Origin: a virus
Taxonomy: Duplodnaviria > Caudoviricetes
Reading direction: 5' to 3' (one strand)
Virus record (IMG/VR): IMGVR_UViG_3300037852_000033
Location: 1-57,335 of that record
DNA length: 57,335 nt
Part shown: positions 29,176 through 57,073 of the stretch, piece after piece
Layout: each line of letters starts with the position of its first letter
Position numbering within the stretch: the first letter of the stretch is position 1
Notes under the pieces: model-generated
What the model was told of the DNA's origin: nothing
Seen by the model: only the letters and a program-made list of their open reading frames with translations
The model's database searches: none
Made by a program: the position numbers and the translations under genes

Positions 29176-29439
29176 ATGGCAATGCAGGACTACCTCATTC
29201 GATTCCGCTCGATGGATACACCGAGCTTAACTGCCTTACAGACTGCACTCATTGCCCAGGAATCTACGTTTGCGCAACAATCGAAAGGAACGACCTCATT
29301 CGCCCGCGATCTTCGCCGGTTCGACGACAAACTCAACTGTATTGCCTATGTCTTACGTGAACGCGGACCAGTCATCATAAACGCTCCAGATCAAACCAAC
29401 CCCCACATTGGCATCACAAATTTTGAGCTGATCGAATGA
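29176..29439 (+). CDS. putative head-tail joining protein (gpW-like position)
   Basis: Small helical protein at the start of the head operon upstream of the portal. Confidence 0.5.
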   Translation: MAMQDYLIRFRSMDTPSLTALQTALIAQESTFAQQSKGTTSFARDLRRFDDKLNCIAYVLRERGPVIINAPDQTNPHIGITNFELIE

Positions 29440-29897
29440 GCCGAGAAATTCCACTCACAAAGGGAAAGGTCGCCATCGTTGATGACGATGATTATGAACG
29501 TGTGATGCAGCACAAATGGTATTGCAGCAATAATGGATACGCTAAACGCGGAGTTGGCGCACATGGGAAAATCCATCAACTCCTTCACCGCTTCATCATG
29601 AATGAACCAGAGGGGTTGCAGGTGGACCATCGCGATGGATACAGGCTGAATTGCCGTAAGGAGAATTTACGGGTTTGCACGATGTCGCAAAATGGATGCA
29701 ACCGAGGAATGCAAATCAACAACACCTCCGGTAGGAAGGGTGTTACCTGGTGTAAGAAGCGAAAGAAGTGGCAGGCCCAAATAACAGCCAATGGAATCCA
29801 CAAATATATTGGTCATTTTTCAAGCGTAGATGAGGCTGGTGACGCCTATGCGAAGATCGCTATTGAGCTACATGGAGAATTTGCTCGGGTATCATGA
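29436..29897 (+). CDS. HNH-AP2 homing endonuclease (paralog of 21439-21912)
   Basis: IPLTKGKVAIVDDDD, VDHRDGYRLNCRKENLR, NTSGRKGV, HGEFA. Confidence 0.9.
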   Translation: MSREIPLTKGKVAIVDDDDYERVMQHKWYCSNNGYAKRGVGAHGKIHQLLHRFIMNEPEGLQVDHRDGYRLNCRKENLRVCTMSQNGCNRGMQINNTSGRKGVTWCKKRKKWQAQITANGIHKYIGHFSSVDEAGDAYAKIAIELHGEFARVS

Positions 29898-31792
29898 CAA
29901 ACACAAACGGAAACGGCACGCGAGAACTCCACATGGCCAGACTCTATGATGGCCAAGGCAACACCGTGACAGAATGGAACCCACGGTTTGAAGCCGTGAA
30001 ACGAGAGATTCAATTCTCATCGACCTACAACCCAGCCGTAGAACGCCGTGGCCGCGCTCCACATCTGGCCGCCAAGGCTGGATCAGAAAACTGGATTCAG
30101 AATAGGGACCGACTGAAGATGATGGCGGACGCACGGGATGCTGCTCAATACTCATGGATTGGCGGGGTCCTGGCCCGCATCGTCCTCTACGTCTGCGGAA
30201 AGTGCCACTGCAAGAGCAGCACTGGGGACGACATGGTGGACGCGGCTTATGACGACTACTTCCATGCTTGGTGTGGTGACACTCGCAACGACGACGGCAC
30301 CACCCGCTGTGATATCACTGGCCGTCATCGCCTGCTCAAGATGGTGCAAATGTCTTTCCTAGCCTTCTTGGTGGATGGAGACTGCGGACTAGTGGAGGTG
30401 GACCCACTTCTATCTCCAACCGCCCAACTCGATCTGGAAGGAAATCCCATCCCAGGCACCGGAGATTACTGCCTACAGTGCATCGAGGCCGACCGAATCG
30501 GCAGCCCCATAGAAACCGAAGTTCAGGAGGATTACATCGGCGGCGTGAAGATCGACATCCAGACCGGACGGGTCATCTACTACCGGGTCTACCGCCGCAC
30601 GCGGACGAACATGTATGTGGACAAACGGGAGCTGGAACCCAAGGACTTCATCCACGTCTTTGATGCCGACCGCTCGGATGAATACCGGGGGAGGACCAAG
30701 CTACTCCGACTACTCAACGACCTTCGGGACATCCGAGAAACCTTCGAGTCCGAGAAGGTGGCCATCAAAACTCAGAGCCAGTGGGCGGCCTTGGTCTCAA
30801 CTAAGGACCCATTCAACAACACCGGCTCCGCAGCCTGGGACGGTAAGACCATGTTCGGCACCCCCACCCAAGAAGCGGTTTGGGGGAAGATTCTCAAGAT
30901 GGGCGAAGGGGAGAACTTCGACATGCTGGCTCCATCGGCCCGCCCCAGCGGATCGACATTGGCTTTCGTTCAGACCCTAATCCGCATGATGTCTCTGAGT
31001 CTTGGGTTGTCCTACGGGCTTCTCTGGGATTTAGCCTCTCTTGGTGGGGCGACCGCCCGCATCGAGGTCCAGTCCGACCTGCGCAAGATTCAATACTGGC
31101 AGGACAACATCATCGCCAGCATCATCTTGAACCGCATCCGCAAGAAGGTCATCGCCCAGGGAATTTCCAGAGGCGAACTCCCTGCCGTGCCGGGATGGGA
31201 GAAATGCTCCTGGAACTTCGGCCCGCATATCACCGCCGATCTGGGTTACGAGATGGAAGCGGATATCCAGAGCGTCCACAGCGGGTTCCAGACGGTCGAA
31301 GCAATTGCCGCCAAGCACGGCAAGACCACTCGCGACATCTTCGAGCATAATGCGGATACCTTCCTTCAGGCCCTCAAAGTTGGAGCTGAGAAGGGTGCCC
31401 CAGTGGAAGCATTCGCGGGCGGATTGTATCCCGACGGAACCGAACTCAAGGCCGCCTTCGATATCAGCGGACCTGTCCCGCCACCCCCTCCTCCAGCCGG
31501 ATCGATCGCGGCCATCGGGGACAAGGGAGTGGCGAAGCTGCTGGAGCTTCTGGAAGATGTCGGAGACGGATCGATCGATCGCGAATCCGGCATCGAGACG
31601 GCCATACGGGTGTTTGGCCTCACCAGGGGACAGGCAGAAAAGATCATGCCAGAAGAGCCTTCAGAAGAAGAACTCAACCGCGCCGCAGGGTTGGATACCA
31701 AAGGCCGCCATGCTCCTATCGTAGCCGCTGGAAGCGCCAAGCCCGGAGCCAACAAGAGCACCAAGGCCAAGAAGAAGACCAAAAAGAAATGA
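29894..31792 (+). CDS. portal protein, lambda family
   Basis: R..MMADARD, CDITGR, LVDGDC, IEADRI, GVKID..GR...Y.V, IHVFD..R..EYRG, LGLSYGLL. Confidence 0.88.
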   Translation: MTNTNGNGTRELHMARLYDGQGNTVTEWNPRFEAVKREIQFSSTYNPAVERRGRAPHLAAKAGSENWIQNRDRLKMMADARDAAQYSWIGGVLARIVLYVCGKCHCKSSTGDDMVDAAYDDYFHAWCGDTRNDDGTTRCDITGRHRLLKMVQMSFLAFLVDGDCGLVEVDPLLSPTAQLDLEGNPIPGTGDYCLQCIEADRIGSPIETEVQEDYIGGVKIDIQTGRVIYYRVYRRTRTNMYVDKRELEPKDFIHVFDADRSDEYRGRTKLLRLLNDLRDIRETFESEKVAIKTQSQWAALVSTKDPFNNTGSAAWDGKTMFGTPTQEAVWGKILKMGEGENFDMLAPSARPSGSTLAFVQTLIRMMSLSLGLSYGLLWDLASLGGATARIEVQSDLRKIQYWQDNIIASIILNRIRKKVIAQGISRGELPAVPGWEKCSWNFGPHITADLGYEMEADIQSVHSGFQTVEAIAAKHGKTTRDIFEHNADTFLQALKVGAEKGAPVEAFAGGLYPDGTELKAAFDISGPVPPPPPPAGSIAAIGDKGVAKLLELLEDVGDGSIDRESGIETAIRVFGLTRGQAEKIMPEEPSEEELNRAAGLDTKGRHAPIVAAGSAKPGANKSTKAKKKTKKK

Positions 31793-32036: not shown

Positions 32037-35000
32037 ATGCCCAACCCACAGAGAAAGATCAAAGACACCTCCGCACACGATGTCGCCACCGGGGCACTAG
32101 AGGGCGGCATCCTCGGCCCAGTGACCGAGCCACTCTACAGCAAGCTGGGCGGAAAAGGATGGGGAGAATCAGTGCTCGGTGGCGGACCAAAGACCTTCAA
32201 GACTCGTGGGGGCTTCAAGTCCCTTGGCAAAGCCTCCCTCATCGGGGCTGGCTTAGGAGCGGCCTCGACCGCGCTCATTGGAGCAGGAGTCCATGCGATT
32301 GCCAAGAAGCGGGAAGAGGAACAGGAAATGTCCTCCAAGTCCCGCATCATCCGCTTCGCCAAGAGTGGAGAAATCCACGAGCGCTACGCCCCGAACTCGA
32401 TCTACAACACCACCAAGGGCGGACAAGAGATCAAGAAAGCGGTCCTCAACCGCAAGACCACCGACTTTGTGACTACAGGAAGAGGACGCAAACTGTTCAC
32501 TACCACCACCAGTCCATCTGGGCGGAAGGAACGCATCCCCAGAACCATTGGCAGCACTGGATTTAGCAAGGGTGGCGTCAGAGCATTCATCCGAGCTAAA
32601 TACAATCTCTCTGGAGCAGCCGCAAAACTCAAGGGCGACATTGATAAAATGGCAATTGATTACTCCAGGAGTGGTAGCACACCGGAGCAGATCAAGGAAG
32701 TGTCCAAGACGATGCGCCGAAAGCACATCGCCCACTACACCAAAGAGCTGCGCGGCAACATGAAGGCCCCTGAGAAAGTGAAGCCGGAGATGCAAGCCCA
32801 CCGCGATGTCATGGCCGGAGAGCTGCATGAATCTCGCAGGATCATCCAGGCGGAGAAACAACACCGCACTGGGGTCAAAACCAAGCCGCTCTCACCTGCA
32901 AAGATGCAAGAGATCAAGAGCCGCCCAATCCAGGGCAAGACCCATAAGGCATCCGGCCAGCCACTGATGGACAGAGACACCCTCCATACCCATCGTCAGA
33001 ACCTAGACGCCGCAGCATTGACCGAGCACACTCGCGCCCAGACCGCCTTGGAGCGGGTTCATGCCAAACTCAAGACCAAGATCGGTGCCGGACTGGAGCG
33101 GCTTGGGCTAATTGAGAAACACCAACGGGCAACTTCCGTAGAGAGCCTGATGGACCCACTCAAGATGACCGGCAGCACCCCCACAAAAACACAGAAGAAG
33201 CTCATCGCCGAGCCGCTAACCCACGGATACATTCCTACCGGAAGGCATCCACTGGATTACGAAATCAGAAAATCACCACGCCGCATTGGTATCGGCCATG
33301 TGAACAAGATCATCAGTCGTGTTCTTGGGATGCAAAACGCCGCAACGGGAGGTCTGGCCGGGGAGCGAATGGTTAAGGATAAGATTCTCAAGAAAGGAAC
33401 GATCTTTGATAAACCACTTCCAAAGGCCGCCCCACCTGAACCAGCCGGTTATCCGCATCTCAGGAAAGTAGGCATCGGACTCGGCGGGGCCGCCCTCCTT
33501 ACTGGAGGGATCATTGCGGGTAAGAAACTACTCGATCGCCGCAAGGAAAAACAACACGAGTTCAGCTCCGGCAGTAAGAAGCTCCGAACACTCCTTCAAG
33601 AAACCGAGGAAGCTGGTGGCGCAAAGGTCATCAAACACCTCACGGAAACTGGCGCTCTTGAATACGCCACCGAGGGAGGTGAGACTTATAAGAATAAGTT
33701 TGAGAACGAACTCAAGCGTAGTCACGACCTTAACAAGGAACTCACAGACCTTCACGCCAAGCGCGAGCATGTTGCCGGTCAGAAGAAATTCAAAGGTTCA
33801 GTTGAGGCCCGAAGCGAGGGCTTTAAGGAAGGCCGTAAGGCCAGCCTCAAGGAACACCTGGCATCTCAGGAAGCCTCCCGACTCCATCACGAGACCGAGA
33901 TCAAGGCATCCCGTGGTGAACGCGATGCCGCCAAAAGGACAGCCTCACGCATCATCCCTACCGCTATCGGAGCAGGAGCTATTGGTGGAGCAGGTGGATA
34001 CCTCATTGGCCGCAAGCCAAAGGAGACTCAATTCTCCGCTGATCCCATGGCCATCCGCAGCAACAACAAGAACGTCACCAAGGACAAATACGGCAAGTTA
34101 ATCAAGACCAACGAAGCCAACCGTCGTGACTCCAACTATGGCCGCAGCGCCCTGACTGGCGGAGCACTAGGGGCCGTGCTACGCGCCAAGATGAAGATTG
34201 TTAAACCCGGTCGCGCCGCGCTCATTGGGGCCGGATCAGGCATAGCCGTGGAGGCCGCCACCCGAATCGCCAACCGCAACAACCGAGACCAATTCGGCGA
34301 GAAGACCATTGGAGCCAAGCGCATCGAGGCCGCCCCATGGCAGGGTGGTGCCGCCGCCGCCGCCGTCATGGGAGCACGCAAGCTCTACAAGGAGAGCCCA
34401 GTGGTCCAGCGGACAGTCAGAAAGTATTTCAGCGCCATCGAGTTTGACCAACAGGATGATGACGAGCGCAGGGCGTCGTATCAAAAAGCCGCCTCTCGCT
34501 ACATCTACGGCAAACCACGCGCCGTCTACCCAAAGGCCGAGAAGTTCAAGCGCTACCTCGGACGCGGCAGCAGGCTGATTGAGAGCGCCAAGTCACACGT
34601 TAGCGGCAAACCCAACCTCGATGCCCGTGGACGGGAGAAGACGCCCGAATGGAAGAAGCCATGGGTCATTGGAGGACTCGCCACCACAGCTATTGCTGGC
34701 GGAGTCCTGGCTCACCATGGCGTCAAGAAGATCATTCGCGAAGCACCACACAACAGCAACCTTGGCCAGCTCCGCGAATCCTTCCTGCAAGGGCATCCGA
34801 CAGACGCGATGCGCAAGACTTTTCCAGCCACATCCAAAGTTGCTGACTTTATTACTGGAGTGAAGAGCGACATAGGAAAACTTATGAACAAAGCCGCCGC
34901 CCCAATGACCAAGGTGATTGGTGAGGCCGCTGGAAAACCGGGAGAAGTCCCTACCTCCAAAGAAACCCTGAAACGCCACAAGCAAGCTGCTACCGAGAAG

Positions 35001-36770
35001 GAGAATAAAGACATCGCTGAGACGCTTCACCAGAAAGGTCAAATCATCTCCGGCCCACGCAAGGGCAAAGGGCTATTCCCGGAAGACACTCACAAGTTCG
35101 CCGTCCACAACCCAGACTGGGATGTGCGCGACCAGCGCGGCAACAGCGCCCGCGTTTATGCCCCAGGACATCAGATCAGGGAGCGCCGACCCAAGGAATG
35201 GTATGAGCGCCAGGGCGTCCAGCGCACCGCTCTGGCCATCGCTGGCATCGGGGCTCCTGTTGGAGCCTACGTCGCCCACCGCAAAGGGATGTTCAAAGGC
35301 ATGGGAAAGGCAGTCCGCCGAGACGTGGATAGGTCCATACACAAGATCAGGCCAGCCAAGGGCACCCCATTTGGCATCGTCGATCCCATCGAAGCCTCAT
35401 CGAAGACCAAGCTCATCCACTTCCAGTCCGACGACCACGCCAAACGGAACAGCATTCTCACCGGCAGTGTCGGAGCATTGGCGGGATCGCAATATATCGG
35501 AGGCCGCGCCCCCTACCCCAACGAGGACCTAACCGGCAAACGGATTATCCGCCGCCATCGAGTTATTCCCATTGCCCAACATGAAGGTATTGGTATAGGT
35601 CACGATACCATTGCCGAGGTCCATCACCGTGGCATCCTTGGAGGTGGTAAAATAAGGGCCACTAAGATCAGCTCATTCAACAAAAGAGGAGATGCGAGAG
35701 TGGCCGACGAAGTAGGCAACATGACCGCCGCCCACCGAGCCAAGACCCAGATTGGCAAGCCATTCCGCTATAACCTCCTAACGAGCAACTGCCAGGATTT
35801 CACGGACTACGCTCGTCGTGTGACTCGTCCACTCTCCCGCCAGACCCGCAGAGCGATCGCTGGCGGAGGATTGGCAGCAGCGGCTGGATATGCGGCCTCG
35901 AAGATCAGCAGTCGCAAGGAGATGTCCTCACGCTCTCGACTCATCCAGTTCAAGGAAAAAAAGAACGACCACAAGGCTCTACGCACCGCCGCCATCGCCG
36001 GAGGAGTAGGAGCCGCCGCCGTAGGTGCAGCACTTCTGCCTGGTGCCTCCTCGCTGATGAAGATTCAGGGCCGCGAGGTGATGAGCGGGCTTAAGGGAAA
36101 GCTCTCCACCACCAAAGGACTCCGTTCATTCATCAACCCACCCAAGGCCGATCCAAATCGCGGCGGCAGGATGGTTGCTGATTACATCGACGCCTCCCAA
36201 AAGTTTCTCAATCAAGGTGTCCACGGAAAAGTGCTGGGAGCCGCCCTTGGGCATGCCAAGAGAAACCCAGAGGGTCCAGTATCCAAGGCCATTCAGAAGA
36301 TTCCAGGATCGAAGGGTGATTTCGGCATATCTCATTACGCCCGCTTCCGCGCCGGACACCGCGAAGCTCTTAATCACTGGGATTGGGAGGTGGGTGAGAT
36401 GATCAAGAAGCGCCCAGCAGTATCAACTCTCTGGGGCAGCAAGAAACCCAAGGGAGTCAGCAAGGAGGCGCATATCGCTTCCGAACATGAGACTCTAAGG
36501 ACGGGGCGCGAGAAGACCCACGCAGCCATTAACGAACAACTTTGGACCAAAGGTCTTAATGAACAGGATGCCATCCGCCACGTTGCCACCAGAACCGAAG
36601 ACCCAGAGATTCGCGGCTACTTCAATAAGCTGGCCATCACCAAGTCCGGCGCAGCCAAGGGATACGCCAAGAAGGCCCTTCTCTCCCCAGGATTGATCGC
36701 CGGAGGGGGAGCAACCGCCGTGGCCGGAGCCACCGTTAATCGCGACCGCAAGAAAAGAATCATCAGTTGA
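32037..36770 (+). CDS. 1577-aa basic modular polyprotein (putative internal head/ejected cargo) with Gly-zipper modules and an LRAT-like domain
   Basis: About 8 modules separated by EMSSKSRIIRF, HEF, TQF, KYFSAIEF, HKF, EASSKTKLIHF and EMSSRSRLIQF; located between portal and protease. Confidence 0.75.
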   Translation: MPNPQRKIKDTSAHDVATGALEGGILGPVTEPLYSKLGGKGWGESVLGGGPKTFKTRGGFKSLGKASLIGAGLGAASTALIGAGVHAIAKKREEEQEMSSKSRIIRFAKSGEIHERYAPNSIYNTTKGGQEIKKAVLNRKTTDFVTTGRGRKLFTTTTSPSGRKERIPRTIGSTGFSKGGVRAFIRAKYNLSGAAAKLKGDIDKMAIDYSRSGSTPEQIKEVSKTMRRKHIAHYTKELRGNMKAPEKVKPEMQAHRDVMAGELHESRRIIQAEKQHRTGVKTKPLSPAKMQEIKSRPIQGKTHKASGQPLMDRDTLHTHRQNLDAAALTEHTRAQTALERVHAKLKTKIGAGLERLGLIEKHQRATSVESLMDPLKMTGSTPTKTQKKLIAEPLTHGYIPTGRHPLDYEIRKSPRRIGIGHVNKIISRVLGMQNAATGGLAGERMVKDKILKKGTIFDKPLPKAAPPEPAGYPHLRKVGIGLGGAALLTGGIIAGKKLLDRRKEKQHEFSSGSKKLRTLLQETEEAGGAKVIKHLTETGALEYATEGGETYKNKFENELKRSHDLNKELTDLHAKREHVAGQKKFKGSVEARSEGFKEGRKASLKEHLASQEASRLHHETEIKASRGERDAAKRTASRIIPTAIGAGAIGGAGGYLIGRKPKETQFSADPMAIRSNNKNVTKDKYGKLIKTNEANRRDSNYGRSALTGGALGAVLRAKMKIVKPGRAALIGAGSGIAVEAATRIANRNNRDQFGEKTIGAKRIEAAPWQGGAAAAAVMGARKLYKESPVVQRTVRKYFSAIEFDQQDDDERRASYQKAASRYIYGKPRAVYPKAEKFKRYLGRGSRLIESAKSHVSGKPNLDARGREKTPEWKKPWVIGGLATTAIAGGVLAHHGVKKIIREAPHNSNLGQLRESFLQGHPTDAMRKTFPATSKVADFITGVKSDIGKLMNKAAAPMTKVIGEAAGKPGEVPTSKETLKRHKQAATEKENKDIAETLHQKGQIISGPRKGKGLFPEDTHKFAVHNPDWDVRDQRGNSARVYAPGHQIRERRPKEWYERQGVQRTALAIAGIGAPVGAYVAHRKGMFKGMGKAVRRDVDRSIHKIRPAKGTPFGIVDPIEASSKTKLIHFQSDDHAKRNSILTGSVGALAGSQYIGGRAPYPNEDLTGKRIIRRHRVIPIAQHEGIGIGHDTIAEVHHRGILGGGKIRATKISSFNKRGDARVADEVGNMTAAHRAKTQIGKPFRYNLLTSNCQDFTDYARRVTRPLSRQTRRAIAGGGLAAAAGYAASKISSRKEMSSRSRLIQFKEKKNDHKALRTAAIAGGVGAAAVGAALLPGASSLMKIQGREVMSGLKGKLSTTKGLRSFINPPKADPNRGGRMVADYIDASQKFLNQGVHGKVLGAALGHAKRNPEGPVSKAIQKIPGSKGDFGISHYARFRAGHREALNHWDWEVGEMIKKRPAVSTLWGSKKPKGVSKEAHIASEHETLRTGREKTHAAINEQLWTKGLNEQDAIRHVATRTEDPEIRGYFNKLAITKSGAAKGYAKKALLSPGLIAGGGATAVAGATVNRDRKKRIIS
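35540..35830 (+). other. LRAT-like (permuted NlpC/P60) domain within the polyprotein
   Basis: QHEGIGIGHDTIAEVH (His at 35580) ... RAKTQIGKPFRYNLLTSNCQDF (Cys at 35790). Confidence 0.75.
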
Positions 36771-36772
36771 CA
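36766..36772 (+). promoter_or_regulatory. late element GTTGACA, 14 nt before ATG 36787
   Basis: GTTGACA tccccatc T tcact ATG. Confidence 0.7.
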
Positions 36773-36786
36773 TCCCCATCTTCACT

Positions 36787-37401
36787 ATGAATCTCCAACA
36801 ACTCATACAGCTCCACGCAATCACCGATCAGGCACTTATTGAGCTTGGCAAGAAAGACTCGAAGGAAAAAACAAAGTTCAATGGTAAGATGATCAAAAAG
36901 AAAGACAAAAAGGAGATGTCATCCAGGATGGATAAGCTTATTCAGCTACGAGAGATGACCGATCGCATCATCGAGTTCGCCCGCTATGACGACGAGGACG
37001 AGCAAGGCAACATCCTCGGCACCGCTGCCAAAGTTGGCGTGGGCGCAGCCGGAGTCGGCGCAGTTGGCTACGGCGGATACAAGGCCGACCAGGCGATCAT
37101 GGGAAAATACGGAACCCGCAATACCCTCCAAGTCGGATCAACCAACCAAGTAGTTAATCCTGGGGCTGGTGGGTTCACCATGAATACGCCGGGAACACCA
37201 AACCCGCTCACCGCACAGGTAGGACGACCACAAGCCTACCGGGCCGCCGCCAGCGATCTCAGCAACGTGATCCGCAATCGCACCGGAGCCGCCTGGCAAG
37301 CTGGACGCCACGCCACCAACGTCACCGCAGGTCGCGGAGCAGGGACCCTGGAATCAATTCTCGCAGGTGTTAAGAAGGGTGCCAAAGTCGCCTTCCACTA
37401 A
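36787..37401 (+). CDS. 204-aa putative head cargo protein with repeated processing motifs and a Gly-zipper
   Basis: LIQLHAITDQALIEL, EMSSRMDKLIQLREMTDRIIEF, then GVGAAGVGAVGYGGY. Confidence 0.7.
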   Translation: MNLQQLIQLHAITDQALIELGKKDSKEKTKFNGKMIKKKDKKEMSSRMDKLIQLREMTDRIIEFARYDDEDEQGNILGTAAKVGVGAAGVGAVGYGGYKADQAIMGKYGTRNTLQVGSTNQVVNPGAGGFTMNTPGTPNPLTAQVGRPQAYRAAASDLSNVIRNRTGAAWQAGRHATNVTAGRGAGTLESILAGVKKGAKVAFH

Positions 37402-39203
37402 TGGCTCTTCAACCACCATTCCCGGAAAGCATGACGACCACCAGAATGGCTGGTCTGATCAAAGAGGCAAAGAAGAACAAGCCCTTCAGCAAGCGGATTC
37501 TTGGCGTCTTGAGCAAGATCAAATTCCAGGATGAACTGGATTCCATTTTATTTGACAGCGATGACGTTAAGGCGCGCTTCAAAAACTCAATCATCGGAGG
37601 CGCTGTTGGGACCGGCATCGGAGCCGGAGCAGCCGCACTATCACACAACAAAGTCAAGCTACCCAAAGTCTCTATCGACAAAGGAATACAAGTAAGCATG
37701 CAACATCTATCCAGACCAGGGGCGGCTCTATTTGGTGGTGGCGCTGGCGGAAAGATTGGCAGCTTGGCCGGTCTGACGGTTGGCAAGAAGAAAAACAAGA
37801 ACGGCAATCTCGTGCCCAACGATCAAGGCGGAGCCACCGCACTCAGGTCTGAGCTGAACGACATCATCGAATTTCAAATTCCTTGGCAGCAGATGGGCAA
37901 GGCCGCTATCAAGTGGGGAGGCATTGGAGCTGGTGTTGGAGCGGCAGCCGGAGGCATCAGTGGAGCACTAAGTAGCGATCCCAACCGAACAGCTCTTGGC
38001 GGAGCACTTAGCGGAGCTGTCACTGGAGGAGTTCTGGGAGCTGCCGGAGGAGCTGGCATGACAGCATGGAAGAGTAGACTGGCGGCCAGCAAGGGCATTG
38101 GAGGAGTGATTCCGGGATCAACTCCAACCGGGCCTATGACATCGCCACCAGTCAAACCACTCGACCCAGGCGGAGCATCCAGCATTCTCGGGGATCAGCA
38201 AGTCAAACAAGCTCAATACCAACAACTTCAACCACGAATGCTGAACCCAATGCCAGCACAAGTGCAGCCATCAATTACACCAAAGAGCCGATTCAGTAGT
38301 GCCGCCGAGGCCGTATCAACTCCGGTTGATGCCGACAAATTCAATTCCATGCAACCAAACATCCAAAAACGCGCCAGAGGTGTTGCTAATCTAGCCAACG
38401 ATCCTGGCACCGGAGGTGAAGGATCAGCAGCCCATCAGGCATTCTGGCGCATGCGCGAGGAGCATGGATTCCGTTCCGAACTAAATAACATCATTGAACT
38501 CTCCCGTGGTGATATGACCAAACTGGCCCGCAAGAAACTGGGCAAGAAAGTCATCACCGATGAGGAACTACAGGTGTCCAAGAACCGTGCCGCCAGGACC
38601 GCCCGCGACAAGCTGGCCAAGAAGGTCAGCGTGCTGCGGCATCTCACGGCACGGGAGGAGTTGATCCAACTCAAGGCCATCGACCTCGGCTACAGCTACG
38701 AGAGCATGTATGGCGGCTGCGGTATTGATGTTGCCGCCAAGCCAGATAGGAAGAACTACCCCTCCTTCTACGTCAGCGACCGACCGGACGAACTGGACAT
38801 CCCTATGGAAGGACAGGCCGTGATCAAATACAAGCTGCGCAGCAAGGAGATGCGCCAGAACGAGAAAGGTGAGAAGAAGCACTCCGCCAGCCTGGAGATT
38901 CATTCCATCGATCCCATCAAGGAGGACAAAAAACCCAAGCAGGGCGAGCGGGCCAAGCTGGTGAAGTTCCGCGCAGAGCTGGACTCGATCATCCACTTCG
39001 GCGATCCACGAAAGCGTAACAACCTGGGCGAGTTCAGCGGAGCCGAAGGCGGACCTGATCCGACCGCAATGGGTATCACCTACAAGAGCGGCCTCATCAG
39101 CTCCGCCGTGGGTGGCGCAGCCGGTGCGGCTGGCGGACTGGCGGTGACTAAGGGTCCTGCGGCGATCAAGAGCCTACTGAGTAAGATCAAGAAGAAGAAA
39201 TAA
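37401..39203 (+). CDS. 600-aa modular polyprotein (putative head cargo)
   Basis: Five spacer motifs FQDELDSILF, LRSELNDIIEF, FRSELNNIIEL, LTAREELIQL and FRAELDSIIHF separating Gly-zipper and basic modules. Confidence 0.75.
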   Translation: MALQPPFPESMTTTRMAGLIKEAKKNKPFSKRILGVLSKIKFQDELDSILFDSDDVKARFKNSIIGGAVGTGIGAGAAALSHNKVKLPKVSIDKGIQVSMQHLSRPGAALFGGGAGGKIGSLAGLTVGKKKNKNGNLVPNDQGGATALRSELNDIIEFQIPWQQMGKAAIKWGGIGAGVGAAAGGISGALSSDPNRTALGGALSGAVTGGVLGAAGGAGMTAWKSRLAASKGIGGVIPGSTPTGPMTSPPVKPLDPGGASSILGDQQVKQAQYQQLQPRMLNPMPAQVQPSITPKSRFSSAAEAVSTPVDADKFNSMQPNIQKRARGVANLANDPGTGGEGSAAHQAFWRMREEHGFRSELNNIIELSRGDMTKLARKKLGKKVITDEELQVSKNRAARTARDKLAKKVSVLRHLTAREELIQLKAIDLGYSYESMYGGCGIDVAAKPDRKNYPSFYVSDRPDELDIPMEGQAVIKYKLRSKEMRQNEKGEKKHSASLEIHSIDPIKEDKKPKQGERAKLVKFRAELDSIIHFGDPRKRNNLGEFSGAEGGPDPTAMGITYKSGLISSAVGGAAGAAGGLAVTKGPAAIKSLLSKIKKKK

Positions 39204-39212
39204 ATCCCCGCA

Positions 39213-39704
39213 ATGGACAAAGACGTGCTCCTATGGATATTCGGTATTACATTTACCGTAGTGGGATCGCTGTGGCTCATCATCTGGAATTCCGTGCGCA
39301 CAAATATCGACGAGGCGCACGATGACATCCGGGAGATGAAAGATAGGGTATCAAACATAGAGGGAAAACTCGGCGGCTACAGGAGTATGGACGACTCAAT
39401 TAAGGGTTTGATTATTCGCGTAACACGCATCGAAACCAAGATCGAACTGTTCTGGCAAAGCCTGGGAAATAGAGCAGCGGATATCCTCCACAGCTCCCAC
39501 ACCCCGGAGTTAGATGTCCTACTGGAAGCGTTTGGTAATAAAACCATTGACGATGCCGGGGTAAAAGAATTGATCAAGCGACTCGAAAACATTGAGCAAT
39601 CATCCGAAGACAAGGGATACAAAATTTCCAGTGCCATTCTCCTGCTCATCGTGAAATCAAACGCCGAGCTGAAAAAGGAGGAGAATAAAGATAAAACAGA
39701 ATAA
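39213..39704 (+). CDS. membrane protein, one N-terminal TM plus coiled coil (holin/XhlA-like architecture)
   Basis: VLLWIFGITFTVVGSLWLIIW followed by a heptad coiled coil. Confidence 0.5.
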   Translation: MDKDVLLWIFGITFTVVGSLWLIIWNSVRTNIDEAHDDIREMKDRVSNIEGKLGGYRSMDDSIKGLIIRVTRIETKIELFWQSLGNRAADILHSSHTPELDVLLEAFGNKTIDDAGVKELIKRLENIEQSSEDKGYKISSAILLLIVKSNAELKKEENKDKTE

Positions 39705-41345: not shown

Positions 41346-42764
41346 ATGCAGCTTGCTACTATTCATCTTCATAACCCGGAGGCATTCTCTGGCCTTACTG
41401 GTATAGTCGATACGGAAAATTGCGTGGTCCACGGAGTCAGTTTGATCATGATGGGAATTGCCGAGGGCCACCAGTTAGAGGTGGATAAAACGACCATCAA
41501 ACAGATTTACGAACTCGCAAAAGCCAAGGGGCAAATTCCGGTCAACCTAGACCACGGGAGCGGAATTTCGAGTATGAACGGATTTTGTGATGGTTTTCGT
41601 ATTGATGGGTCCAAGCTCCGTGGTGACTGGCACCTTCTGAAAACACACGAGGAAACTGAAACGATGCTGGAGCGCGCGGAGCGCCAGCCGGGGACATTTG
41701 GGCTTTCAGCAGCATTCAAAGGTCCGCCAAAGGGTGTGATGGAAAACGGCAGCGCCAAAGCCCGAGCGGAGGCATTATTGAGCTTCGATGTCGTTGTCAG
41801 GCCAGCCGCCAATGTTGGTCTCTTCTCCGTCAAAGAACCTCACATAGTTGACACCCAAAACTTTTCTAGCCCGGTTAAACTCTTCACCCTCGAAAATCCT
41901 ATGGCTCGTCAAAATACTCAAACCCAGGAAGCGTCCAACGAAGATATCGTGGCCGCACTCAACAACCTCAACGAGCGTTTTGAGGCCCAAACCAAGGAAC
42001 TCAACGAGCTGAAGGGGGCGCTGGATCAGCAAGGTGGCGGAGAGGAAGAGGGTTACGACGTGGATCAGCTTGAAGCCCTATTCAACATGAACCCGGCCCA
42101 GCTCGCCCAGTTCAACCGCGAGAACAACACCAAGATTTCCAGAGCTGAGATCGTCCAGGCCGTGGACCAGCACAATGCCAACGTGCAGGCCCAAATCGAC
42201 GCCCAGGGGCAAGGAGAAGGCGAAGGTGAAGGAGAAGGCGGCGAGGCCGGTGGTGAAGGCGAAGCAGGCAATCAGCATGCCGAGGGCGCTGCCGGGACAC
42301 CAGGACTGGAGACTTCCGCAGCGGGCACACAACTCGCGGCCCTGCGCCAAAAGGTCATCCAGCTTGAAGCCAAGCTCTCCAAGCGCGAGCAGCGCGAGGA
42401 AGAGGAAGCGGCCCGCATTGAGTTCGAGGCCATCCAGAACAACTTCGCCACCCTCCAGGAGAAGAACCAGAAGCTGGTCGAATTCGCGGAGAAGGTCGTA
42501 GCCGAGAACGAGGCCCTCAAGGTCTACCTCTCCACTGGCACCCGTCCGGTCAAAGCCGGGATTGATAACGGCGTCCGTCTCTTTAGCGCCAACGGCGACG
42601 GGGAACTCCACCCCTTCCAGGCCCGCGTCAAGGAGATCGAGAAGGAAAAGAAGTGCTCCAACGCCCAGGCCATCCTCTTCGCCAGCCGGGAGACTGGCGG
42701 CAGCGCCAAGCACGCGGACTGGATTCTCAGCCTGCGGAGCAACGGCCAAGAACTGCACAGCTAA
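41346..42764 (+). CDS. prohead maturation protease fused to scaffold
   Basis: Assemblin-fold motifs VNLDHG (His), FGLSAAF (Ser), SFDVVVRPAANVGLFS; acidic Gly-rich and coiled-coil scaffold C-terminus; upstream of cement and major capsid genes. Confidence 0.82.
   Translation: MQLATIHLHNPEAFSGLTGIVDTENCVVHGVSLIMMGIAEGHQLEVDKTTIKQIYELAKAKGQIPVNLDHGSGISSMNGFCDGFRIDGSKLRGDWHLLKTHEETETMLERAERQPGTFGLSAAFKGPPKGVMENGSAKARAEALLSFDVVVRPAANVGLFSVKEPHIVDTQNFSSPVKLFTLENPMARQNTQTQEASNEDIVAALNNLNERFEAQTKELNELKGALDQQGGGEEEGYDVDQLEALFNMNPAQLAQFNRENNTKISRAEIVQAVDQHNANVQAQIDAQGQGEGEGEGEGGEAGGEGEAGNQHAEGAAGTPGLETSAAGTQLAALRQKVIQLEAKLSKREQREEEEAARIEFEAIQNNFATLQEKNQKLVEFAEKVVAENEALKVYLSTGTRPVKAGIDNGVRLFSANGDGELHPFQARVKEIEKEKKCSNAQAILFASRETGGSAKHADWILSLRSNGQELHS
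41847..41853 (+). promoter_or_regulatory. internal GTTGACA element upstream of a putative nested scaffold start (ATG 41901)
   Basis: GTTGACA cccaaaac T t at the protease/scaffold junction; in-frame MARQNTQ. Confidence 0.5.
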
Positions 42765-42782
42765 TCCTCACCCACACCCACT

Positions 42783-43439
42783 ATGAACCTCGAATCCGTT
42801 GTTGACCGTCCGGTAGCCGTTGATCTCTCGGCTGACGCGAATGAATTTGTCGCCGTAACCCTGCGATCCACCGGCCTGGATATCGCCGGACCACAGGACT
42901 TCGTGTGGGGCACACTCCTGCGCGGAAATGTCGCACCCAGTAACGGCCAGACCATCCCGACTACTTTCAAGCCAGCGGCTACTTTCGTCTTGCGAGGAGG
43001 GGCAGTAGTGACCTTCATCCAACTTGGCAACAACGCCGCTGCCATCGCCATGGGCGACCTCCTGATTCAGGACCCAGTGAACCCCGGAGTCTTCCTTAGC
43101 GCACCGGCAACCACAGTAACCGGCGTAGCCTCCACTGGGGTATTTACCACGGGATCAGCCCATGGACTGGTGGTCGGCGATCCCATCCGCCTGATCAGCT
43201 CCACCGGAGCCACAGCGGGGTTGACCAACGGGGCCACCTACTACGTGGCCAGCGTCCCCAGCACCACCACCTTCACAGTGGCCACCACCCCCAATGGGGC
43301 GGGAATAACCTGGACCACCAACGTCAGCGCCGGTTCCTACGTGGCATTTGCCGAACCAGGACAGCTCAAGATTTTCGCCTGGGATTCATGCCCGTCCGGT
43401 CAGACCGGAGGAAAGATTCGCGCGGTCCTGTTCGGATAA
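42783..43439 (+). CDS. capsid cement/decoration protein with inserted beta domain
   Basis: Position between scaffold and major capsid; AAAIAMGDLL cement-like core; insert AHGLVVGD...YYVASVPSTTTFTV. Confidence 0.65.
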   Translation: MNLESVVDRPVAVDLSADANEFVAVTLRSTGLDIAGPQDFVWGTLLRGNVAPSNGQTIPTTFKPAATFVLRGGAVVTFIQLGNNAAAIAMGDLLIQDPVNPGVFLSAPATTVTGVASTGVFTTGSAHGLVVGDPIRLISSTGATAGLTNGATYYVASVPSTTTFTVATTPNGAGITWTTNVSAGSYVAFAEPGQLKIFAWDSCPSGQTGGKIRAVLFG

Positions 43440-43458: not shown

Positions 43459-44472
43459 ATGTATAATACCTCCGACTCAATCCCACGGGCAGATATCAGC
43501 ACGGTGCTAATGGAAGCCGTGGGCCAAGAACAGCTCTTCATCGCTCAAGAGCTACTGCCCGTCTATTCCTCAGTCACGGAGGTAGGACGCTATCCTCGCT
43601 TCCGTAAGAAAGCCGCCGAACTGCTGCGCGCTGGCCGCAACCCCAATGGAGATGGAACCTTCCAGTCAAACACCAAGCGTGGCGCAACCGGCACCTACCA
43701 GGAGCTGACCCGCAAGTTCGAGTGGGACAGCTACCAGACCGAGGAATACGGCCTGGAGGAGAGGGTTGATGATGTGGTGGCCCGCCGCATGGAGAACTTC
43801 TTCGACGCCCAGATGGTCACCGGCAAGTTCGTGATGAACGAGCTGATGCTCGATTACGAGATGGAGGTCAGCCTCAAGCTCAACACCACCATCGGCACGG
43901 ACGCCAATGAGGGGCTGGTATCCACCAATGTCGCCACCGCCTGGACCGGAGCAAACCTCGCCACCATGGATGTGCCCGCCGAGATGAATGCGGTCATCGA
44001 GCGCCTCACCCTACTGGGAGAGCTGCCCGAAGAGGCTGTGATGAGCCTTTCGGTCTGGAACCTGATCCGTCGATCCCAGAAGCTGCAAACCTATGTCTAC
44101 GGCTTTCTCAATGTCACCCAGGGCGGCAGCCAGATCACCGAGCAGATGTTCGCCGCCTGCTTCGGCCTCAAGCGCCTGATTGTGGCCAAGAAGTCCGTTG
44201 ATGTTTCCACCAAGGGCACCGCCACCAACCTCATCCCTGTCTGGGGTAACACCAACGTCCTGGTAGGACGCTTCGGAGAGGGCGACTTCATGAACGGAGG
44301 ACTCGGGCGCACCATCGTCTGGGACGCCGATTCACCGGGCGGCCTGTTCACTTCCGAGGAATACCGGGACGAGCGCAGGCGCGGCAGTATGTTGCGCATC
44401 CGCAGCAATCGAGCACTCAAAATGATCAACCCTGTCTGCGGCCAGCTAGTGGCTATCTCTTACGCTCCGTAA
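43459..44472 (+). CDS. major capsid protein (HK97 fold, gpE-like)
   Basis: 337 aa; FIAQELLPV, YQTEEYGLEERVDD, VMSLSVWNLIRRS, FGLKRLIV, GLGRTIVW. Confidence 0.85.
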   Translation: MYNTSDSIPRADISTVLMEAVGQEQLFIAQELLPVYSSVTEVGRYPRFRKKAAELLRAGRNPNGDGTFQSNTKRGATGTYQELTRKFEWDSYQTEEYGLEERVDDVVARRMENFFDAQMVTGKFVMNELMLDYEMEVSLKLNTTIGTDANEGLVSTNVATAWTGANLATMDVPAEMNAVIERLTLLGELPEEAVMSLSVWNLIRRSQKLQTYVYGFLNVTQGGSQITEQMFAACFGLKRLIVAKKSVDVSTKGTATNLIPVWGNTNVLVGRFGEGDFMNGGLGRTIVWDADSPGGLFTSEEYRDERRRGSMLRIRSNRALKMINPVCGQLVAISYAP

Positions 44473-56068: not shown

Positions 56069-57073
56069 ATGGCTATTCCAGTCGTCGATCCAGAATCAAG
56101 CGTCCTGACTTACCCGCAGTGGTTAAAATGGGAACATCAATTCAGCGCTACCAATACTCCAACCTCCTGGCAGATCACCGCAGGTGGATTCCCCTCTGGT
56201 ATGACTTTCCAGCCATCGTGGGCCGTGACTGGCACTTCCAGCAGCAACCTCATCAATCTCACCGCCCACGGTTTCGCCAACGGCACCATCCTGACCTTCA
56301 GCGCCTTGACCGGAGGATCATCACTAGCCACCGCGACCAACTACTATGTAGTGAACACCGCCGCCAACACCTTCCAGCTCTCCCTGACTTCGGGTGGGGC
56401 CGTGCAGGCCCTGGGATCGGACATCAGCGCCGCCACCATCTATCGCCCCGGCTATCTCGTTGGTGCGGCTACGTTGCCAGGTATCTCAACCGTGCAGCTC
56501 ACCGCCACCAATGGAACCGGAGCCAGCACCCCACCCACCCTCTTTACCATCGGCATTGAACCAGCGGCGGTGTCGCCTGATTCCAATGTCGATCTTATCT
56601 GGAACTTCGCCACCAACGACATCATCGCCCAGCTCACTTCTTCCCTCTCCCTAACCCCGGTTGGCAAGGATGCCGCTGGGTTAGTCATCCCGCAAATCTT
56701 TGCCAAAGAGGATGACGATCTCATCATGCGCGTGCGCCTGGTTAAGAATAGCAGCGTGCTCGATCTTGGTGATCCAGTAGCCATGTCACTCATCCTAAAG
56801 GAGCTGGAGCCTGACGCGCAGGTAGTAATCAGCGATGGCGCGGTCAGGATAGGCACAGGAGACGCCACCAGCTACCTGATCCACGCCAAACTCGATGGCG
56901 CAATCCTGGCGGCCTCCCTGACTAATTACGAGGCCGATAGCGGAACCTTCTTCACCGCCTTAGCGGAGATCGAGCTGACCTTCGTCAACCCCTATGCCGT
57001 AGGGCCGACCAATCTGGTGAGGACATCCAAGACCTTTGGTATCCAAATCGAACGCGACCTAGGCATACTCTAA
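56069..57073 (+). CDS. tail protein with a He_PIG-like Ig domain interrupted by an inserted beta domain
   Basis: ATNTPTSW...FPSGMTF [insert AHGFANG..YYVVNTAANTFQLS] G.LVG..T.PG..TVQLTATN.TG. Confidence 0.6.
   Translation: MAIPVVDPESSVLTYPQWLKWEHQFSATNTPTSWQITAGGFPSGMTFQPSWAVTGTSSSNLINLTAHGFANGTILTFSALTGGSSLATATNYYVVNTAANTFQLSLTSGGAVQALGSDISAATIYRPGYLVGAATLPGISTVQLTATNGTGASTPPTLFTIGIEPAAVSPDSNVDLIWNFATNDIIAQLTSSLSLTPVGKDAAGLVIPQIFAKEDDDLIMRVRLVKNSSVLDLGDPVAMSLILKELEPDAQVVISDGAVRIGTGDATSYLIHAKLDGAILAASLTNYEADSGTFFTALAEIELTFVNPYAVGPTNLVRTSKTFGIQIERDLGIL

Follow-up and report, generated by a model that had tools for sequence, protein, structure and literature searches.

A candidate head-packaged cargo protein of a tailed phage, built from tagged, Gly/Ala helix-bearing units, one of them PLAAT/LRAT-like

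What is a phage likely to do with a very large and strongly basic protein that is encoded between its portal and capsid genes and is punctuated by glycine- and alanine-rich helices? This question is raised by an open reading frame (ORF) of 1577 amino acids (aa) in the IMG/VR record IMGVR_UViG_3300037852_000033, a linear sequence of 57,335 bases with a CheckV completeness of 78%, the whole of which is referred to here as the window. The original prediction held that the modules of this protein form a string of tail-anchored, membrane-active peptides. Its observation was confirmed by the present analysis, and its interpretation is partly supported. Our reading, to which we assign a probability of roughly one half, is that positions 32037-39203 (three ORFs, 2381 aa) encode a head-packaged polyvalent or ejection cargo of autonomous units with membrane-inserting helices. 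Packaged modular cargo is the likely part of this reading, while insertion of the Gly/Ala helices into a membrane is proposed tentatively, at slightly less than even odds; membrane-anchoring units are plausible. The units follow a common grammar, which comprises an N-terminal amphipathic tag, a small domain, one or two Gly/Ala helices, each some 20 residues long and flanked on both sides by lysine or arginine, and a basic tail. The three genes and the eight units of the first one are as follows:

32037..36770, + strand: cargo polyprotein gene, 1577 aa, eight units (M1-M8)
32037..32327, + strand: M1 (aa 1-97), HDxxxGxxEGG peptide, helix 66-89 followed by KKR, no N-terminal tag
32328..33548, + strand: M2 (aa 98-504), net charge +46, helix 478-495 followed by KKLLDRRK at its end
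33549..34019, + strand: M3 (aa 505-661), degenerate tag FSSGSKKLRTLL, helix 639-658 followed by RKPK at its end
34020..34451, + strand: M4 (aa 662-805), 'DKY..I..RRDSNYGR' unit in common with proteins P0002-P0009, several Gly-rich stretches
34452..35093, + strand: M5 (about aa 797-1019), tag YFSAIEF at 797-803, 'GREKTPEWKKPW' and helix 875-896
35094..35393, + strand: M6 (aa 1020-1119), 'WDVRD.RG.SARVYAPG' and helix 1064-1081
35394..35921, + strand: M7 (aa 1120-1295), tag, N-terminal Gly-rich helix, PLAAT/LRAT-like Cys-His domain (predicted), helix 1273-1288, basic tail
35922..36767, + strand: M8 (aa 1296-1577), tag, helix 1317-1341, all-alpha domain (WDWEV; modelled), helix 1547-1568, basic tail
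36787..37401, + strand: p204, second cargo gene, one Gly/Ala segment
37401..39203, + strand: p600, third cargo gene, four tags, four Gly/Ala segments and a basic C-terminus

The unit borders were obtained by BLAST of the window protein against its first homologs, which cuts it into M1-M8; the same units occur in other orders in P0002-P0009. A search of 90%-clustered proteins at E<=0.001 returned 9 members including the window's own, and with aa 1110-1577 as query the family grew to 85 metagenomic representatives at E<=1e-3, 66 at E<=1e-10 and 29 at E<=1e-30. Three IMG/VR contigs carry family members, and scans of metagenome and genome contigs with the M8 alignment turned up neither a confirmed locus nor a prophage or host. 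Two related phages, L001 and L002 (portal 35% and head protein 56% identical to those of the window), illustrate how the units behave: in L001 M8 is joined to the units before it, in L002 it forms a separate 278-aa gene (69% identity), and the two units neighbouring M8 are permuted between them. Units thus exist in relatives as separate genes or in other orders, and the modularity described in the original prediction was borne out by these permuted, split and fused forms.

The relatives also show where units naturally begin and end. Stand-alone M8 proteins start with the tag (MIDRLKELAAFTGRLIEF.., MSIERIIEF.., MDLIEF.., MSLDSIFEF..) and terminate in a Gly/Ala helix with a basic tail. Module ends are natural protein ends in the family as a whole: a Gly/Ala segment falls within the last 30 residues of 57 out of 87 proteins, compared with 17.4±3.6 for random truncations, a count skewed by the query unit M8, which often stands last. 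Within the window protein, the earlier statement that most modules end in a helix, a basic cluster and then a spacer holds directly for five of the eight units (M1, M2, M3, M7 and M8). In M6 the helix is separated from the unit end by a gap of 38 residues, the run in M4 is no longer than 14 residues, and M5 does not follow the scheme.

Gly/Ala segments were defined as runs of at least 15 residues without D, E, K or R and with a Kyte-Doolittle (KD) 15-residue mean of at least 1.2. By this rule the 1577-aa protein has eight segments of 16-25 residues (aa 66-89, 478-495, 639-658, 875-896, 1064-1081, 1273-1288, 1317-1341 and 1547-1568), where shuffled sequences have 0.87±0.85 and 0 of 1000 reach eight. 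p600 has four (reached by 0 of 1000 shuffles), and the single segment of p204 is matched in 190 of 1000 shuffles and is not significant. All five examples quoted in the original prediction were found in place (aa 68-89 with KKR, 478-495 with KKLLDRRK, 639-658 with RKPK, 1273-1287 with SKISSRK and 1548-1567 with NRDRKKR); lysine or arginine stands immediately before as well as after all eight segments, and not after them alone. The protein is indeed as rich in basic residues as had been stated (G 11.1, A 11.4, K 10.5, R 8.1 and H 3.6%; K+R 18.6%), with a net charge of +144, and each of the units M1-M8 is net positive (+4 to +46). Across the family, 454 segments were counted in 74,637 aa (6.1 per 1000), with a median length of 20, a G+A fraction of 0.53 and a net charge of +1.5 before and +1.8 after the segment.

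What had been called a spacer between modules is a real, conserved tag with the pattern [LMF]-S-[SA]-[KR]-x-x-x-I-x-F (also given as [LMF]-S-[SA]-[KR]-x-x-x-[LI]-I-x-F) and the general form L-S-A-K-L-D-E-L-I-E-F. Its copies in the 1577-aa protein are:

32328..32357, + strand: junction tag 1, MSSKSRIIRF (aa 98-107), position weight matrix (PWM) score 33.0
aa 1120-1129: strong tag ASSKTKLIHF, start of M7
aa 1296-1305: strong tag MSSRSRLIQF, start of M8
near aa 509, 666 and 797: degenerate tags (in M3, FSSGSKKLRTLL at 509-520; YFSAIEF at 797-803)

p600 carries the helical tags LTAREELIQL, LRSELNDIIEF, FRSELNNIIEL and FRAELDSIIHF, the last three of which exemplify the helical form, longer by one residue, of the p204 and p600 tags; in p204, tag-like helices are seen in three places, namely the N-terminus, aa 44-54 and aa 60-66. 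A hmmsearch model of such a short motif recovered few copies, and a position matrix and a loose pattern with shuffled controls were used. The loose pattern matched 129 times in the 89 proteins examined, compared with 40±5 in shuffles. The three cargo genes of the window contain seven matches in 2381 aa, and its other 59 ORFs (13,713 aa) contain seven that are visibly poor. A tag-like RFEAVKREIQF at the N-terminus of the portal protein scored 11.4 against 31-33 for true tags and was taken as chance. The tag core lies within the first 35 residues of 13 of 80 family proteins that start with methionine, as opposed to 4.6±1.9 for internal windows; it starts the stand-alone M8 proteins P0016, P0038, P0072 and P0079, more weakly the M7 protein P0049, and also the polyproteins P0003 and P0005 and p204. 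Internal translation starts at the tag methionine were also considered. The purine runs upstream of the tags are uninformative on this point, because the Shine-Dalgarno sequence is not seen at the true gene starts of the window phage. Segments and tags are real, conserved and specific to the cargo genes.

M7 is the unit whose nature can be recognised. Units other than M7 had no match in the Pfam and PHROGs libraries, and M2 had no library or sequence match; PHROGs and NCBIfam searches with the three cargo proteins returned only a weak phrog_15344 match for p204 (E 0.007) and a chance-level TraT match. The Pfam LRAT family (PF04970, cut-off 24.3 bits) was found above its cut-off in three of 53 homologs scanned (P0037, 28.8; P0042, 25.6; P0017, 24.4 bits), with 24.1 bits in P0018 and 19.2-21.6 bits in P0002, P0003, P0004 and P0006. 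When a profile of 21 M7 sequences was compared with PDB sequences, it matched HRASLS2 (E 1.2e-6), PLAAT3/AdPLA (3.7e-6 to 6.1e-5), PLAAT4 and a HRASLS3/LRAT chimera, with Aichivirus 2A following at E 0.4-0.65. Identity to PLAAT/HRASLS/LRAT proteins is about 15-17%. At least 90% of the 21 sequences share H63, N132 and C133 (alignment numbering), and the catalytic candidates in the window protein are H1182 (QHEGIG; 35580-35582) and N1251-C1252 (NCQDF; C1252 at 35790-35792). The H and NC motifs of the M7 family align with HWAIY and NCEHF of HRASLS2/PLAAT3.

An AlphaFold (AF2) model of M7 is in agreement with these matches. Its mean predicted local distance difference test value (pLDDT) is 79, with 83-98 in the core; the tag (residues 1-14) is modelled at pLDDT <50 without secondary structure, a Gly-rich helix spans residues 16-32 (50-59), and a helix at 149-176 that holds AIAGGGLAAAAGYAAS follows the catalytic domain (58-67). 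Foldseek placed PLAAT/HRASLS/LRAT structures at ranks 1-6 and 8-9 (PLAAT2/3/4 on top) and Aichivirus 2A at rank 7, with a probability of 1.0 for ranks 1-8 and 0.94 for rank 9, TM-scores on the target of 0.46-0.72 and a best E of 2.7e-4. Profile and model thus agree that M7 is a predicted Cys-His domain of the PLAAT/LRAT type followed by a hydrophobic helix. In PLAAT1-4 themselves, according to excerpts of PMC10102619, the catalytic domain is followed by a hydrophobic stretch of ~30 residues that anchors the protein in the membrane.

M8 was modelled with a mean pLDDT of 83 and a predicted template modelling score (pTM) of 0.74, as an all-alpha domain of ~200 residues (core 86-98) flanked by end helices that hold the Gly/Ala segments (pLDDT 53-66 and 51-67). 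Foldseek against the PDB gave no match for this fold at E<=1e-3, and the best Z in a VIA-align comparison with 48,161 chains was 6.5, to helical hairpins only and below the stated noise level for helical models; the best ESM Atlas score of 0.84 is a lead only. The top VIA-align rows are helical hairpins of 60-70 residues (a TM1-TM2 hairpin in micelles, conjugative pilins) and their ranges pair with both ends of M8, from which we infer that the end helices may pair as an antiparallel hairpin. Two of the seven residues that are invariant in 22 M8 sequences are glycines within the two end helices (G28 and G262); these helices are therefore constrained and not mere linkers.

The models also bear on the proposed anchoring. 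The hydrophobic segments do not fold into a globular core in either of the two AlphaFold models: the helices are predicted with pLDDT 50-67, outside confident cores of 83-98. The term tail-anchored fits in so far as M7 has the predicted architecture of the tail-anchored PLAATs, and the window protein's own C-terminus carries the helix at 1547-1568 of 1577; for the internal units it would presuppose cleavage. However, a second Gly/Ala helix is modelled near the N-terminus of M7 (16-32) and of M8 (4-37), and M4 has several. Because a hydrophobic helix is present at both ends, M7 and M8 look hairpin-anchored rather than tail-anchored.

The case for packaging is made by the position of the genes and by the domains of their relatives. 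The head gene block around the cargo genes contains:

29436-29897: HNH/AP2 endonuclease gene (phrog_99, E 9.4e-41), abutting the portal start
29894..31792, + strand: portal protein, lambda family (PF05136, E 4.7e-29)
39213-39704: p163, small protein of 163 aa with a strong transmembrane (TM) helix
40076-41323: GIY-YIG endonuclease gene (PF01541, E 1.8e-5), between the cargo genes and p479
41346..42764, + strand: p479, conserved N-terminal domain and acidic coiled coil
42783-43439: p218, between the scaffold-like p479 gene and the head protein gene
43459..44472, + strand: major head protein (phrog_1005, E 8.9e-26)

L001 and L002 have the gene order portal, cargo genes, phosphoesterase, p479-like gene, head protein. 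Phage-type polyvalent proteins are described in the main text of Iyer, Burroughs, Anand, de Souza and Aravind (2017; PMC5512222) as giant, multi-domain proteins whose genes lie among those for the virion in portal-terminase phages and for which packaging and injection are assumed, and InPase is listed there as specific to them. An InPase domain stands at the N-terminus of four of the 53 relatives scanned (P0008, P0010, P0045 and P0075). Both the position between portal and capsid genes and the InPase in relatives fit the polyvalent or ejection cargo reading. Residues 38-435 of P0005 contain a LigD 3'-phosphoesterase and a DNA-ligase OB domain ahead of tagged units, which suggests that its cargo includes a DNA-end repair or sealing enzyme. 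ParB-like and HExxH motifs noticed by eye in relatives had no Pfam support.

A prohead protease may release the units from one another. In T4, a protease removes the capsid targeting tag. The candidate here is p479, whose N-terminal domain of ~180 residues (H70 and S121 invariant in 21 sequences) is followed by an acidic coiled coil; as a 479-aa ORF counted from an upstream TTG start it has a net charge of -25. Its place and shape would fit a fusion of prohead protease and scaffold. A Pfam domain was found in none of the 28 p479 proteins listed (27 homologs and the window's own), and a non-significant alignment with HK97 gp4 pairs GLSAAF with GMSVGF and PAAN with PANE. A tag-like SNAQAILF near the p479 C-terminus is not kept in L001 and L002 and was dropped. 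Cleavage at the tags is possible, if somewhat doubtful; we infer it because the tags are kept inside polyproteins across 35-50% identity and sit where natural genes begin.

These elements can be combined into a mechanism. The tags would load the units into the procapsid, like the T4 capsid targeting sequence, and a prohead protease may cut before them. The basic units would sit against the acidic scaffold first and against DNA later, and upon infection would exit through the tail with the DNA. The Gly/Ala helices would then insert as hairpins into the cytoplasmic membrane from the periplasmic side, with the inside-negative potential pulling their cationic flanks and aiding insertion. The putative lipid-modifying enzyme, M8 and other domains would be held at the entry site, where they might open or hold a path for the DNA. 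PLAAT3 assists delivery of the picornavirus genome to the cytoplasm, according to excerpts of PMC10102619. A fuller version of the proposal, which we regard as doubtful when taken as a whole, is that a head-carried, membrane-anchoring PLAAT-like phospholipase or acyltransferase and hairpin-anchored units remodel the host cytoplasmic membrane for the DNA, as a bacterial-virus counterpart of the PLAAT3-dependent delivery of picornavirus genomes and of the H-box/NC 2A proteins, with the tag as a portable signal for capsid loading and perhaps cutting.

Several observations weigh against the main reading. The eight Gly/Ala helices are only marginally hydrophobic: their best 19-residue KD means (KD19) are 1.14-1.65 and one of eight reaches the classical 1.6, with 9-13 G/A/S/T and 5-7 large aliphatic residues per 19 residues of segment, whereas the clear TM helices of the window phage itself reach 2.23 (p163) and 2.64 (tape measure). 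It is also unusual for a membrane span to have basic residues at both of its ends. The 872-aa tape-measure-like protein, with its strong hydrophobic helices, could itself be the membrane channel. The original prediction had further invoked GxxxG glycine zippers, and a small-xxx-small-xxx-small pattern is indeed present in 410 of the 454 family segments, yet 53% of their residues are G or A. In 459 segments (the 454 of the family plus those of p204 and p600), compared with within-segment shuffles, G-G pairs are enriched at i+2 (z 4.7), i+4 (z 4.2), i+5 (z 9.7) and i+7 (z 7.8) and depleted at i+3 (z -4.1), z-scores that overstate independence because the family sequences are related. This spacing places small residues on two helix faces, does not correspond to a plain GxxxG zipper, and recalls the GxGxGxG helices of ATP-synthase c-rings.

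On the side of tags and cargo, a tag core follows within 45 residues of 53 of the 454 family segments (control 31±5), so that 'helix, then tag' holds for unit ends and not for every helix, and M1 begins without a tag. The Pfam LRAT score of the window protein is 19.8 bits for the whole protein and 21.4 for the fragment, below the cut-off. Neither Pfam, PHROGs and NCBIfam nor the PDB sequences yielded a match to p479, and its hhalign comparison with HK97 gp4 fell short of significance (E 0.12, probability 0.5%). Finally, a tblastn search of 50,697 phage records with the 1577-aa protein returned 0 matches and hence no cultured relative; with the portal as query, the same records returned only the Akkermansia phage Moulinsart (27% identity over 28% of the query).

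Some of these points count equally against the mechanism first proposed for the locus, namely that the polyprotein is cut at its spacers into tail-anchored, bacteriocin-like pore peptides that make the inner membrane leaky, in the service of DNA entry, exclusion or anti-defence. It draws on features that are real: the Gly/Ala helices with cationic flanks are conserved, tags occur at the junctions and natural protein ends follow a helix and basic tail. However, with 100-400 aa the units are domains rather than peptides, and one is a predicted enzyme; searches of Pfam, PHROGs, NCBIfam and the PDB returned no similarity to a bacteriocin or pore-former; M7 and M8 have helices at both ends; and the marginal hydrophobicity and the conjectural cleavage apply here too. 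We consider this explanation improbable.

Equally improbable, in our view, is an inner-capsid DNA-condensing or core protein, in which the charge of +144 would neutralise DNA and the Gly/Ala helices would pack into an internal body, membranes being uninvolved. The extreme basicity of every unit speaks for it, as do the location of the gene in the head gene block, the glycines on two helix faces (i+2/i+5 and i+4/i+7) and the invariant glycines in the M8 end helices. Tight helix-helix packing of this kind is known from the GxGxG helices of the ATP-synthase c-ring. Nevertheless, a PLAAT-type enzyme with an anchor-like helix has no clear role in a DNA core, relatives carry host-directed enzymes (InPase, LigD-like), and free shuffling and splitting of units would be unusual for an ordered structure.

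Another explanation concerns M7 alone, which might be a papain-fold peptidase and not a lipid enzyme, acting as a peptidoglycan endopeptidase or as an autoprotease of the polyprotein. LRAT and PLAAT belong to the NlpC/P60 papain-like superfamily, the His and Cys are conserved, weak PPPDE peptidase matches were obtained (E 0.0019 for P0002 and 0.0049 for the window fragment), and wall hydrolases are frequent in phage virion proteins according to the main text of PMC5512222. All significant sequence and structure matches are nevertheless to PLAAT/HRASLS/LRAT and the related picornavirus 2A, and the classical NlpC/P60 peptidase MepS appears only at Foldseek rank 28 with a probability of 0.35. A peptidase is thus a shade less probable than the two preceding alternatives. 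Late-expressed, unpackaged proteins of the host membrane (superinfection exclusion or lysis control) are very unlikely, since, despite the many hydrophobic helices and the neighbouring p163, relatives keep these genes between the portal and the scaffold/capsid genes, the InPase-headed relatives match packaged polyvalent proteins, and ordinary co-translational insertion would call for helices that are more hydrophobic and not basic on both sides.

The surroundings of the cargo genes show further features. Two homing-type endonuclease genes (HNH/AP2 and GIY-YIG) lie within the head gene block. p163 has a single N-terminal helix (KD19 2.23), a coiled-coil-like remainder and a weak holin match (phrog_689, E 0.0011). 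A domain of ~60 residues is common to p218 and a tail-fibre-like protein at the window end (56069-57073; BLASTP E 0.005), and both touch phrog_9370; p218 may be a decoration or fibre-like head protein. The lysine-rich C-terminus of the portal (31742-31792, ..KSTKAKKKTKKK) resembles the basic tails of the cargo units, and a non-coding gap of 244 nucleotides separates the portal from the 1577-aa gene. A calcineurin-like phosphoesterase (PF00149) follows the cargo genes in L001 (15169-16167, E 9.6e-7) and L002 (13927-14985, E 1.8e-5), and a weakly GNAT-like gene stands directly after the portal in L002 (4819-5724); the window has neither at the equivalent places.

The element GTTGACAT occurs five times in the window, on the + strand only (29155, 32013, 36766, 41324 and 53652), compared with 1.58±1.16 in shuffles, 1 of 100 of which reached at least five. 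Four of the five copies are 13-16 nucleotides upstream of an ATG, namely that of the 1577-aa gene, p204, p479 and a 796-aa gene (53675), and the element may be a late promoter or initiation element. Downstream of the head genes, the 872-aa tape-measure-like protein is helical with strongly hydrophobic helices (KD19 2.64) and has a PHROG match at chance level only (E 0.68). Among the window ORFs, none of sheath size is found between the major head protein and this protein. The window phage is probably long-tailed and non-contractile, because a tape-measure-like protein is present and no sheath-sized ORF precedes it.

How long-tailed phages move DNA and proteins across the cytoplasmic membrane is poorly understood. 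The present family supplies a readable grammar, whose unit borders are already marked by forms that occur naturally split, fused or permuted. As a portable signal the tag would let units swap, split and fuse freely, and if it loads capsids, foreign proteins could be packed into phage heads with its help. A PLAAT-like unit active on host lipids would give a tailed phage a lipid enzyme carried in the virion, in parallel to what animal viruses borrow or encode. No virion phospholipase of a tailed phage was described among the literature matches listed, judged by title and start of abstract and with subscription journals uncovered; the same kind of survey gave no paper on LRAT/NlpC in phage cargo, and within that survey the word 'phospholipase' was counted 0 times in PMC6116005, a 2018 review of the enzymes with which phages breach the cell envelope.

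Several known systems can be set beside the locus. As in polyvalent proteins, the window gene follows a PF05136 portal and precedes scaffold-like and head genes, an order kept in L001 and L002, and relatives of its product start with InPase. Unlike them, the window protein has one recognisable catalytic domain (the putative LRAT-like one) and no hallmark domain (MPTase, InPase, DdrB-ParB etc.). In the main text of PMC5512222 the words transmembrane, glycine, LRAT, papain and phospholipase have 0 occurrences each and hydrophobic has one, in a figure legend; that text therefore describes none of the three features seen here, namely junction tag, Gly/Ala helices and PLAAT-like unit. M7 shares with PLAAT/HRASLS/LRAT proteins and the picornavirus 2A H-box/NC proteins the permuted His...Asn-Cys order and the same modelled fold, and with PLAAT1-4 a hydrophobic helix after the catalytic domain; it differs from PLAAT/HRASLS/LRAT in its extra N-terminal Gly-rich helix and tag and in its place within a phage polyprotein.

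The ejection proteins of T7 (gp14/15/16) and P22 (gp7/16/20) offer a likeness in that they are, according to excerpted sources, head-internal, expelled and rebuilt in the cell envelope. T7 gp16 carries a wall- or envelope-modifying enzyme domain. No sequence similarity to them was found (PHROGs, tblastn of phage records), and the window phage differs in being probably long-tailed and in its modular, shuffled architecture. The DNA pilot protein H of PhiX174 has a Gly-rich N-terminal membrane helix and oligomerises into a DNA conduit; it is a single small protein of a tailless single-stranded DNA phage, and the likeness is by description only. The internal proteins of T4 are diverse, basic and injected, and a common short N-terminal capsid targeting sequence (CTS) loads them onto the scaffolding core, according to excerpts of PMC3012670. 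The tag resembles the CTS as a short conserved N-terminal peptide on otherwise unrelated cargo proteins, a functional analogy only; no similarity between tag and CTS was noticed by eye (no tool comparison was made), and tagged units are here also chained. The locus probably belongs to a kind already known, the polyvalent or ejection cargo of phages, to which it adds a previously undescribed tag, a unit grammar and a PLAAT-like unit.

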